A DNA stretch of 64,000 nucleotides, taken from contig OZ024751.1 in assembly GCA_964016885.1 (NCBI GenBank), forward strand, positions 51,460,001-51,524,000, read 5' to 3'. The position numbers were made by a program, and so were the translations under genes. The DNA comes from Eledone cirrhosa (taxonomy: Eukaryota). The notes below the pieces were generated by a model. The model made no database searches, had not been told where the DNA came from, and saw only the letters and a program-made list of their open reading frames with translations. Below, piece after piece: positions 1,673-44,211 of this stretch (its first letter is position 1; the number at the start of each line of letters is the position of its first letter).

Positions 1673-2228
1673 AAATTGGAATAAATGCTCTGAAATAGCG
1701 ATATATATGTGAATATAGACATAGAATATTCGAAAATATTCTGTATGTTTATAATAAACATTTTGAAGACCTAATCGCTATAGAATAGAATACGTCACGT
1801 ATTACAATTAGATTCTCGATAAAAGCAAGGGAAGTAATCTACGCATTTCATTCTTGTTAGAAATCATCAGGACTACATATCCAGTGCTTTTATCGAGAAT
1901 GACACAGCTAGAGACTTATAGAATACTTAGCTGTGTACAGGAACTGGTTTGAAAGAGCGGTTGCCGGTCCGGCAGAAATTAGAAATTGGAATAAATGCTC
2001 TGAAATAGCGATATATATGTGAATATAGACATAGAATATTCGAAAATATTCTGTATGTTTATAATAAACATTTTGAAGACCTAATCGCTATAGAATAGAA
2101 TACGTCACGTATTACAATTAGATTCTCGATAAAAGCAAGGGAAGTAATCTACGCATTTCATTCTTGTTAGAAATCATCAGGACTACATATCCAGTGCTTT
2201 TATCGAGAATGACACAGCTAGAGACTTA
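1673..2228 (-). repeat. Inverted arm (~1.8 copies) of the 310-bp HHR monomer
   Basis: Reverse complement of the array at 2229-7357; period 310 (1681 vs 1991); HHRs at 1834-1876 and 2144-2186 on minus. Confidence 0.95.
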
Positions 2229-5200
2229 ATGTAGTCCTGATGATTTCTAACAAGAATGAAATGCGTAGATTACTTCCCTTGCTTTTATCGAGAATCTAAT
2301 TGTAATACGTGACGTATTCTATTCTATAGCGATTAGGTCTTCAAAATGTTTATTATAAACATACAGAATATTTTCGAATATTCTATGTCTATATTCACAT
2401 ATATATCGCTATTTCAGAGCATTTATTCCAATTTCTAATTTCTGCCGGACCGGCAACCGCTCTTTCAAACCAGTTCCTGTACACAGCTAAGTATTCTATA
2501 AGTCTCTAGCTGTGTCATTCTCGATAAAAGCACTGGATATGTAGTCCTGATGATTTCTAACAAGAATGAAATGCGTAGATTACTTCCCTTGCTTTTATCG
2601 AGAATCTAATTGTAATACGTGACGTATTCTATTCTATAGCGATTAGGTCTTCAAAATGTTTATTATAAACATACAGAATATTTTCGAATATTCTATGTCT
2701 ATATTCACATATATATCGCTATTTCAGAGCATTTATTCCAATTTCTAATTTCTGCCGGACCGGCAACCGCTCTTTCAAACCAGTTCCTGTACACAGCTAA
2801 GTATTCTATAAGTCTCTAGCTGTGTCATTCTCGATAAAAGCACTGGATATGTAGTCCTGATGATTTCTAACAAGAATGAAATGCGTAGATTACTTCCCTT
2901 GCTTTTATCGAGAATCTAATTGTAATACGTGACGTATTCTATTCTATAGCGATTAGGTCTTCAAAATGTTTATTATAAACATACAGAATATTTTCGAATA
3001 TTCTATGTCTATATTCACATATATATCGCTATTTCAGAGCATTTATTCCAATTTCTAATTTCTGCCGGACCGGCAACCGCTCTTTCAAACCAGTTCCTGT
3101 ACACAGCTAAGTATTCTATAAGTCTCTAGCTGTGTCATTCTCGATAAAAGCACTGGATATGTAGTCCTGATGATTTCTAACAAGAATGAAATGCGTAGAT
3201 TACTTCCCTTGCTTTTATCGAGAATCTAATTGTAATACGTGACGTATTCTATTCTATAGCGATTAGGTCTTCAAAATGTTTATTATAAACATACAGAATA
3301 TTTTCGAATATTCTATGTCTATATTCACATATATATCGCTATTTCAGAGCATTTATTCCAATTTCTAATTTCTGCCGGACCGGCAACCGCTCTTTCAAAC
3401 CAGTTCCTGTACACAGCTAAGTATTCTATAAGTCTCTAGCTGTGTCATTCTCGATAAAAGCACTGGATATGTAGTCCTGATGATTTCTAACAAGAATGAA
3501 ATGCGTAGATTACTTCCCTTGCTTTTATCGAGAATCTAATTGTAATACGTGACGTATTCTATTCTATAGCGATTAGGTCTTCAAAATGTTTATTATAAAC
3601 ATACAGAATATTTTCGAATATTCTATGTCTATATTCACATATATATCGCTATTTCAGAGCATTTATTCCAATTTCTAATTTCTGCCGGACCGGCAACCGC
3701 TCTTTCAAACCAGTTCCTGTACACAGCTAAGTATTCTATAAGTCTCTAGCTGTGTCATTCTCGATAAAAGCACTGGATATGTAGTCCTGATGATTTCTAA
3801 CAAGAATGAAATGCGTAGATTACTTCCCTTGCTTTTATCGAGAATCTAATTGTAATACGTGACGTATTCTATTCTATAGCGATTAGGTCTTCAAAATGTT
3901 TATTATAAACATACAGAATATTTTCGAATATTCTATGTCTATATTCACATATATATCGCTATTTCAGAGCATTTATTCCAATTTCTAATTTCTGCCGGAC
4001 CGGCAACCGCTCTTTCAAACCAGTTCCTGTACACAGCTAAGTATTCTATAAGTCTCTAGCTGTGTCATTCTCGATAAAAGCACTGGATATGTAGTCCTGA
4101 TGATTTCTAACAAGAATGAAATGCGTAGATTACTTCCCTTGCTTTTATCGAGAATCTAATTGTAATACGTGACGTATTCTATTCTATAGCGATTAGGTCT
4201 TCAAAATGTTTATTATAAACATACAGAATATTTTCGAATATTCTATGTCTATATTCACATATATATCGCTATTTCAGAGCATTTATTCCAATTTCTAATT
4301 TCTGCCGGACCGGCAACCGCTCTTTCAAACCAGTTCCTGTACACAGCTAAGTATTCTATAAGTCTCTAGCTGTGTCATTCTCGATAAAAGCACTGGATAT
4401 GTAGTCCTGATGATTTCTAACAAGAATGAAATGCGTAGATTACTTCCCTTGCTTTTATCGAGAATCTAATTGTAATACGTGACGTATTCTATTCTATAGC
4501 GATTAGGTCTTCAAAATGTTTATTATAAACATACAGAATATTTTCGAATATTCTATGTCTATATTCACATATATATCGCTATTTCAGAGCATTTATTCCA
4601 ATTTCTAATTTCTGCCGGACCGGCAACCGCTCTTTCAAACCAGTTCCTGTACACAGCTAAGTATTCTATAAGTCTCTAGCTGTGTCATTCTCGATAAAAG
4701 CACTGGATATGTAGTCCTGATGATTTCTAACAAGAATGAAATGCGTAGATTACTTCCCTTGCTTTTATCGAGAATCTAATTGTAATACGTGACGTATTCT
4801 ATTCTATAGCGATTAGGTCTTCAAAATGTTTATTATAAACATACAGAATATTTTCGAATATTCTATGTCTATATTCACATATATATCGCTATTTCAGAGC
4901 ATTTATTCCAATTTCTAATTTCTGCCGGACCGGCAACCGCTCTTTCAAACCAGTTCCTGTACACAGCTAAGTATTCTATAAGTCTCTAGCTGTGTCATTC
5001 TCGATAAAAGCACTGGATATGTAGTCCTGATGATTTCTAACAAGAATGAAATGCGTAGATTACTTCCCTTGCTTTTATCGAGAATCTAATTGTAATACGT
5101 GACGTATTCTATTCTATAGCGATTAGGTCTTCAAAATGTTTATTATAAACATACAGAATATTTTCGAATATTCTATGTCTATATTCACATATATATCGCT

Positions 5201-43470: not shown

Positions 43471-43872
43471 AGAGGTAAGGATTGACACACACACATACAA
43501 AATTGAAGATAGCAAGTTTGGCTTTTACAAACTACCTTCCTTCTTCTTGTGACCAAATACTGAAACTGACACATAACTGCCCCAGCTCCTGCAATTCTGA
43601 CTTAGATACATGATTCAGCTAATTGACTTATATATATATATATATATCATCATCATCATCATTTTACGTCCGCTCTTCCCTGCTTGCATATATATATATA
43701 TATATATATATATATATATATATATATAGAAAAATAGAAAAAATAGAAAAATAGAAAAAAATATATATAAATATATATAACCAAAGATTAATATGGTCCG
43801 TTGATTACTCAACGAATACAGTTTTATAATAGATTAGAAGCACTCAACAGCAAAGTTTTCATGGAGTTTTTA

Positions 43873-44211
43873 ATATTATTCAAAATGTTAACAAATGAAA
43901 AATATTCACATAATCAAAATATATACTTTATTATATATATTTCAAAGGTACGGTGCTGTTTTTTTCAGTACGTCCTCATCAGACAAAATATATGATTTGA
44001 TATATGACATACCGCTACGGTCTTGATTATTCAATTTCAGATACGGGAATTGAATAATCAAGACCGTAGCGGTATGTCATATATCAAATCATATATTTTG
44101 TCTGATGAGGACGTACTGAAAAAGACAGCACAGTACCTTTGAAATATATATAATAAAGTATATATATTGATTATGTGAATATTTTTCATTTGTTAACATT
44201 TTGAATAATAT
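43873..44211. repeat. ~340-bp palindromic HHR element (left arm extends to ~43727)
   Basis: TTGATTATTCAATTTC-agatacg-GGAATTGAATAATCAA centre; few mismatches between arms; ends in (TA)n. Confidence 0.92.
44096..44158 (+). ncRNA. Type I hammerhead ribozyme (mirror at 43926-43988, minus)
   Basis: TTTTGT-CTGATGA-GGAcGTACTG...CAGTACcTTT-GAAA-TATATA-TA|ATAAAG. Confidence 0.78.

Follow-up and report, generated by a model that had tools for sequence, protein, structure and literature searches.

A 64-kb stretch of the genome of Eledone cirrhosa (assembly GCA_964016885.1, contig OZ024751.1, positions 51,460,001 to 51,524,000 of the forward strand), which we call the window and number from its first nucleotide, carries seven inverted units built from short elements with putative hammerhead ribozymes and lying in (TA)n tracts. 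Such tracts are numerous in the repeat-rich DNA of the window, which also contains an Na_Ca_ex exon (Pfam, E 1.6e-31) within 26329–27474 on the minus strand and, at 32280–35471, an open reading frame (ORF) of a long interspersed nuclear element (LINE) of the endonuclease-reverse transcriptase type. All counts given below refer to this one window. Local inverted units were established by masked self-BLAST of the window together with alignments of their arms, and the 14 element ends were placed by eye.

A preliminary description had reported the seven units and proposed that all of them are arranged head-to-head, with RNA 3' ends pointing outward. The units, here numbered as loci 1 to 7, are real and lie at the positions first given, apart from the limits of locus 3, and in 7/7 the left arm is oriented on the minus strand and the right arm on the plus strand, an agreement with a one-sided chance of 1/128 if the loci are independent. 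A core is present in both arms of five units, while the left arms of loci 2 and 5 carry no core and derive their polarity from being inverted copies of sequence located 3' of the plus-strand core.

Locus 1 consists of a left arm (1673–2228) holding 1.8 of the 310-nt units of a type I hammerhead retrozyme and a right arm (2229–7357) holding 16.5 of these units in tandem, with 17 hammerhead cores; the arms overlap by 516 nt with no substitutions and are separated by a 40-nt spacer. At locus 2 the left arm (16639–16728) comprises a 34-nt overlap, free of substitutions, and 56 additional nt of 3' tail, the right arm (16729–17047) carries a core at 16849, the spacer is 285 nt, and a 58-nt tandem duplication (16712–16829) crosses the inversion junction. 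Locus 3 had been placed at 19295–19845, but its palindrome is about twice as long (19084–20064). The left arm (19084–19568) contains host flank at 19084–19295 and element at 19296–19568, with a core at 19481, and the right arm (19572–20064) contains element at 19572–19845, with a core at 19659, followed by roughly 200 nt of the left flank copied in inverted orientation; the arms overlap by 493 nt, with 3 substitutions and 8 gap columns, around a 3-nt hairpin loop at 19569–19571. At locus 4 the left arm (20136–20276, core at 20244) overlaps for 141 nt, with 3 substitutions and a 69-nt spacer, and is nested in the right arm, which with its spacer occupies 20277–20625, has a core at 20378 and is about 135 nt longer at its 3' end.

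The left arm of locus 5 (31204–31374) is likewise nested, overlapping by 171 nt without substitutions, and the 384-nt spacer plus right arm (31375–31962) carry a core at 31707 and an additional 3' tail of about 35 nt; the plus-strand assignment is tentative within 31375–31650. At locus 6 the left arm (41550–41778, core at 41737) is about 35–40 nt longer at its 3' end than the right arm (41780–41973, core at 41821), and the 194-nt overlap has 6 substitutions around a 1-nt centre. Four of these changes cluster in 8 nt near the centre (about 41707–41714 and 41810–41817) and resemble a 7-nt micro-inversion; the flanks, ACTTTT(AT)n on the left (41520–41550) and (AT)nAAAAGT on the right (41965–41985), together make up a short palindrome that encloses the target tract. 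The left arm of locus 7 (43728–44036, core at 43982) is about 145 nt longer at its 3' end than the right arm (44037–44211, core at 44102), and the overlap is 164 nt, with 3 substitutions and an 11-nt spacer that forms a 5' extension of the right arm. The observation that paired arms stop at different 3' positions was borne out at loci 2, 4, 5, 6 and 7, with differences of about 35 to 145 nt.

No TA tract is present at any of the seven inversion junctions, where the longest run is 2–7 nt. Moreover, the arms of locus 3 differ by 3 substitutions in 493 nt whereas the locus is 94% identical to a family copy at 20918–21101, and the arms of locus 7 differ by 3 in 164 whereas the locus is 87% identical to a family copy at 22274–22453. 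Since the centres lack TA and the arms resemble one another more than they do copies of their families, each unit arose in one event. Two independent insertions into one tract are ruled out, because the centres are free of TA while the non-inverted copies are flanked by TA at either end. The masked self-BLAST of the window revealed no local hammerhead palindrome arranged tail-to-tail. One tail-to-tail pair occurs within the locus 3 family, formed by the right arm of locus 3 and the copy at 20918–21101 (about 1.1 kb apart, 94%), and it represents distinct insertions separated by other sequence. It should be added that 7/7 in a single 64-kb sample tells little about the genome-wide ratio of the two arrangements.

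Some other inverted repeats are present in the window. Pairs of ATG-tailed retroposon ends occur tail-to-tail at 569–652 and head-to-head at 23089–23370, the latter with a TA tract in between, and these pairs (555–660 and 23085–23375) appear to have entered a single tract independently, in contrast to the hammerhead units. At 47935–48185 two identical 55-nt arms flank a 141-nt spacer with an inner inverted repeat of its own, and neither a strict nor a relaxed scan returned a hammerhead core there. An imperfect palindrome at 61422–61539 (48 matches in 54 columns, 11-nt centre) lies just after a TA/TG tract and has no hammerhead core.

Could the units be fold-back artefacts of sequencing or assembly? 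Identical arms at loci 1 and 5, and the complete identity of the array units of locus 1, would be expected of such artefacts. Pieces of four of 23 sequencing runs were compared with the region 18660–22700, leaving out the repeats around locus 3, and among them none spans a palindrome, none of the 15 joints listed (of 245) shows a change of strand, and neither an empty allele nor a spanning long read was seen, which also counts against our interpretation of the units as insertions. On the other hand, the arms of loci 3, 4, 6 and 7 differ by 3–6 substitutions, the short arms are continued by different sequence on each side, and non-nested arms (see below) are incompatible with read fold-backs. 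On balance the seven units are real, and we consider an artefactual origin very improbable.

The cores were examined with a strict type I hammerhead descriptor, requiring CUGAnGA and GAAA core motifs, stems I and II and a UH cleavage site, which gave 28 matches in the window; 18 of 20 shuffled sequences gave none and the other two gave one each. It returned cores in both arms of loci 1, 3, 6 and 7, in the plus-strand spacer of locus 2 and in two single copies. Cores in both arms of locus 4, and in the spacer only of locus 5, where stem I is poor, came from a relaxed scan for which there was no shuffle control. The helix III loops are 4–6 nt. By these sequence criteria the cores of loci 1 to 7 are putative type I hammerhead ribozymes. 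Against this, no Rfam hammerhead model reaches its gathering score in the window; the best match seen, HH9 at locus 1, scores 15.7 bits against 52 (E 0.39), and none was found at locus 7. In an Rfam scan by E-value, the 150 matches listed (of 266) were dominated by microsatellite matches to miRNAs. Minimal hammerheads with a short helix III fit the Rfam models poorly.

Cleavage by the ribozymes is ruled out as the maker of the element ends, as every core-bearing arm runs through the cleavage site. A CTGATGA...GAAA motif at 61700–61770, with a 7-bp closing stem and no UH cleavage site, is possibly a decayed hammerhead. In the group of loci 3 and 7, open frames of 33–42 codons run into the hammerhead (19574–19675, 21002–21100, 22274–22399 and 44038–44139) and share the motifs GMS and YILSDE; they may mark where an ORF, since lost, once ended, or simply echo the RNA motif, and no homologue of them was found.

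The elements had been described as belonging to unrelated families, and this fails in part: relative to shuffled sequences, loci 3 and 7 (z=11.7) and loci 2 and 5 (z=8.3) are related and loci 3 and 4 weakly so (z=5.2). Inversion is not obligatory, because non-inverted copies of two families lie between TA tracts. The locus 3 family copy at 20918–21101 (minus strand) has its 5' end at the same position as the hairpin centre of locus 3, and the locus 7 family copy at 22274–22453 (plus strand) stops at the same AATAT as the right arm of locus 7. Less firm are further copies near position 50, at 19036–19123 and at 22779–22940; the last of these, on the plus strand and also between TA tracts, has a variant hammerhead-like core near 22851 that was read by eye and returned by neither the strict nor the relaxed scan.

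The proposal that outer ends lie in (TA)n is confirmed: all 14 element ends are at most 3 nt from a TA run of at least 10 nt, a condition that holds for 8% of window positions. Microhomology was read only where a longer arm or a tandem unit shows how the template continues, and comparisons between different family copies (at 22457, the right end of locus 5, and 20918) were excluded. Among the eight testable ends, the shared alternating AT run measures 1 nt at both ends of locus 1, 3 nt at the outer right end of locus 3, 5 nt at the right end of locus 6, and 4 nt at the right ends of loci 2 and 7 and the left ends of loci 4 and 5. At least 4 nt are therefore shared at 5/8 ends, compared with 9.2% for random breakpoints (binomial p ~3e-4), and all five read AATAT ahead of the tract. 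One of the examples cited earlier, TATTCA|CATATATATCG at 7357, did not hold up, with an exact microhomology of just 1 nt (9/10 with one mismatch). Furthermore, 44 contigs of other copies of the locus 3 family (sequencing run X1) enter (TA)n behind 19758, after TAT, and internal stops at TA-like words therefore recur elsewhere. The excess of microhomology is real, as had been suggested, but the role in priming further proposed for it is one possible reading, because nearly all measurable cases come from the shorter arm, where end-joining of a fold-back copy or a later deletion predicts the same excess and yields the same junction.

These properties closely resemble those of endonuclease-positive (EN+) Penelope elements. 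In Penelope elements, inverted pseudo-long terminal repeats (pseudo-LTRs), palindromes at junctions and an optional tail have been described, with the head-to-head arrangement "most frequently observed" (Arkhipova 2013, PMC3846280), and the 5' end is often bordered by an inverted, 5'-truncated copy, together with a 30–40-bp tail, unequal 3' tails and a bias towards microsatellites (Craig 2021, PMC8557442). The units in the window share with them, including the Pen families of Adineta vaga (PMC3846280) and the elements of the Fig. 2 legend in PMC8557442, the head-to-head inverted 5'-truncated copy, which lies beside the 5' end in 7/7, the palindromic junctions, the unequal 3' ends, the type I hammerhead in the repeat, here a presumed pseudo-LTR, and the microsatellite or AT-rich targets. 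The 3'-end differences of about 35 nt at locus 5, 35–40 nt at locus 6 and 56 nt at locus 2 resemble the Penelope tail (PMC8557442), and two of the five differences fall within its range. In vitro results point in the same direction, as a Penelope protein, a predicted dimer with AT-rich (ATT) preference, cuts and extends both strands, and two start sites of reverse transcription explain the tail (PMC11167929). Uncleaved RNA is its main substrate in vitro, with which the arms crossing the cleavage site agree.

The polarity rule had been put forward as new, but it is already stated for Penelope elements in PMC3846280 and PMC8557442, and it is also expected, because it follows from target-primed reverse transcription. 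The units match EN+ Penelope insertions in structure, and it is on structure that their putative membership rests; their families would add to a type of insertion already described. They differ from EN+ Penelope in that the copies carry no ORF and the arms, apart from the array of locus 1, are only 34–560 nt. Several points weigh against this assignment. No coding link to a Penelope reverse transcriptase or a GIY-YIG domain was found with queries of just 34–55 amino acids: word searches with the 42- and 55-residue frames gave no match and Pfam gave no family for three short frames. Three matches of a profile search built on four sequences were rejected as a Penelope link, all being repetitive unrelated proteins. 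In addition, target-site duplications are unreadable, as (TA)n flanks both sides.

We consider it probable, at roughly three chances in four, that the copies are short, 5'-truncated or non-autonomous Penelope-like elements inserted in (TA)n by target-primed reverse transcription and closed by two routes. The copies in the window would then be pseudo-LTR fragments and one tandem retrozyme, mobilised by a Penelope enzyme. After priming, the RNA 3' end of the complementary DNA (cDNA) would be attached to the target and its 5' side would be free. Direct joining of the free side would give the non-inverted copies. Alternatively, the opposite end of the break could prime a second cDNA, which may apply to loci 2 and 7 and possibly to loci 1, 4 and 5, or the 3' end of the cDNA could fold back, be extended by DNA-templated copying and connect with the far TA end, in many cases at ATAT, most clearly at locus 3 and probably at locus 6. 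Both inverted routes would yield head-to-head arms, and a tail-to-tail arrangement would be impossible by either.

The nesting of the arms bears on the choice between the routes. At locus 2 only the left arm has the 56 additional nt at its 3' end, and only the right arm contains the complete ribozyme region that lies 5' of the overlap. At locus 7 the left arm has the longer 3' end, and the 11-nt spacer aligns with the 5' portion of the family copy at 22274–22453 on the plus strand. Such non-nested arms favour two priming events, because a single fold-back needs an added deletion to produce them. It must be weighed against this that the non-nesting at locus 7 amounts to just 11 nt and could reflect a later deletion at the palindrome centre, and that the shorter arm of locus 2 could have lost a tail later. 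Loci 4, 5 and 6 are nested and compatible with either route; for locus 4 the nesting is indicated by other copies, among the sequencing-run pieces, that run from 20317 into the right arm. Nesting at locus 1 cannot be judged because the array is tandem.

Locus 3 is of particular value. Its arms extend past the element through the TA tract, a fragment of an ATC-tailed retroposon, a second TA-rich stretch and 40 unique nt, such that about 200 nt of host left flank are duplicated in the right arm; the inner and outer parts are equally young, with 1 substitution in 273 and 2 in 199. A degenerate hammerhead motif like that of locus 1 (19036–19123, minus strand), the sole match of its kind to the locus 1 core outside that locus, is unbroken across 19084 on the left and cut at 20064 in the right copy. 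The left copy of the flank is therefore most likely native and the right one templated. The simplest account would be priming at the TA tract near 19295 and cDNA synthesis to 19568, after which the cDNA would fold back, be extended by about 490 nt in DNA-templated synthesis and join the tract at 20065 via a 3-nt microhomology. Self-priming on an antisense template has been proposed for Penelope (PMC3846280), and the flank copy of locus 3 favours a DNA fold-back over self-priming on RNA. Duplication of host flank is not described for Penelope in the excerpts of PMC3846280 and PMC8557442, and no paper reporting a flank-copying fold-back in insertions of these elements was found in a search of main texts that covered few subscription papers.

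Both joining routes named in the preliminary description thus have an example, two-ended priming at loci 2 and 7 and fold-back at locus 3, and one model does not fit all seven loci. It is possible, although doubtful, that all seven arose by two-ended priming through TA microhomology from one or two RNAs, the flank of locus 3 being a 3' transduction. LINE-1 twin priming provides the precedent, and LINE-1 hairpin foldbacks have also been described (PMC11702581; bioRxiv 10.1101/2024.08.27.596794): in the former a second target end primes internally by microhomology and gives the same polarity, and in the latter an end extended by cDNA can anneal to itself and form a hairpin. The microhomologies of at least 4 nt, the non-nested arms and the extension of both strands in vitro (PMC11167929) are in agreement with this explanation, and two run-off cDNAs could meet at the centre of locus 3, which is the 5' end of the family copy. 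Nevertheless, the left outer end of locus 3 is 51 nt from a TA run and continuous with the hammerhead-like motif of the flank, and the reverse transcription starts observed in vitro fall on RNA positions that lack homology to the cleaved target (PMC11167929). Moreover, the two arms made by LINE-1 twin priming usually derive from neighbouring stretches of RNA, and the accompanying deletions or duplications are short (median 14.5 and 22 bp, respectively), whereas five overlaps here are 141–516 nt. The copies also lack the poly(A) of LINE-1, and its foldbacks are chromosome-scale, in contrast to the local 0.5-kb duplication.

Less probable still, and in our view unlikely, is the origin of all seven units by fold-back or self-priming of one cDNA or RNA, along the lines suggested by Arkhipova, with later trimming by deletions at ATAT. 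The hairpin centres of 1, 3 and 11 nt at loci 6, 3 and 7, the nested arms of loci 4, 5 and 6, the flank copy and the AATAT ends of the short arms would all accord with it, but spacers of 40–384 nt at loci 1, 2, 4 and 5 do not, the centre of locus 1, read by eye, shows no microhomology, and loci 2 and 7 each require the additional deletion. Palindromes could also have formed after insertion, by template switching during replication at the element 5' end and independently of reverse transcription. Locus 3 does include host DNA, and the clustered difference at locus 6 and the tandem duplication at locus 2 demonstrate that the loci rearrange. However, each arm of loci 2 and 7 has element sequence missing from the other, the outer ends are in TA tracts, and the three LINE-type retroposons of the window have no centre-joined palindromes in the self-BLAST, so that we regard this origin as improbable.

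The LINE with endonuclease and reverse transcriptase carries a PHD-like finger and is present in three copies that are 90–96% alike (32358–35803, 52924–56397 and 50379–51711), the first with a 1063-residue open frame. A TA tract is the start point of the 5'-truncated copy among them, and TA tracts thus draw LINEs here too.

The array of locus 1 extends these considerations to retrozymes. It is a non-coding tandem array with a type I hammerhead in each unit, its 16/16 full 310-nt units are identical, and judged by sequence it fits the definition of a non-LTR retrozyme. It shares with animal non-LTR retrozymes the tandem units, the ribozyme in each and the lack of a long ORF, and differs by its head-to-head junction with an inverted arm of 1.8 units. 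In the main text of a preprint arguing that animal retrozymes derive from Penelope elements (bioRxiv 10.64898/2026.07.22.740005), as excerpted, the word "inverted" appears a single time, within a reference, and neither "orientation" nor "palindrom" is used. As the array bears the insertion signature of Penelope, it supports the proposed derivation: a tandem retrozyme with the same signature accords with the descent of retrozymes from Penelope elements.

For the host, the hairpins appear to be located within an intron of a cation-exchanger gene, where they might give rise to long double-stranded RNA. For Penelope elements, the formation of whose tandem and inverted structures was called undefined in PMC8557442, seven young insertions in 64 kb provide junction-level constraints on integration, and locus 3 together with the contrast between nested and non-nested arms offers a modest handle on the mechanism. 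We suggest only tentatively that fold-back with DNA-templated copying, able to enter the flank and closed at AATAT on the far (TA)n, is a regular Penelope route beside two-ended priming. If so, high-copy families would continually generate palindromes of host DNA, and the shares of nested, non-nested and flank-copying insertions would give a direct read-out of the mechanism of Penelope integration.

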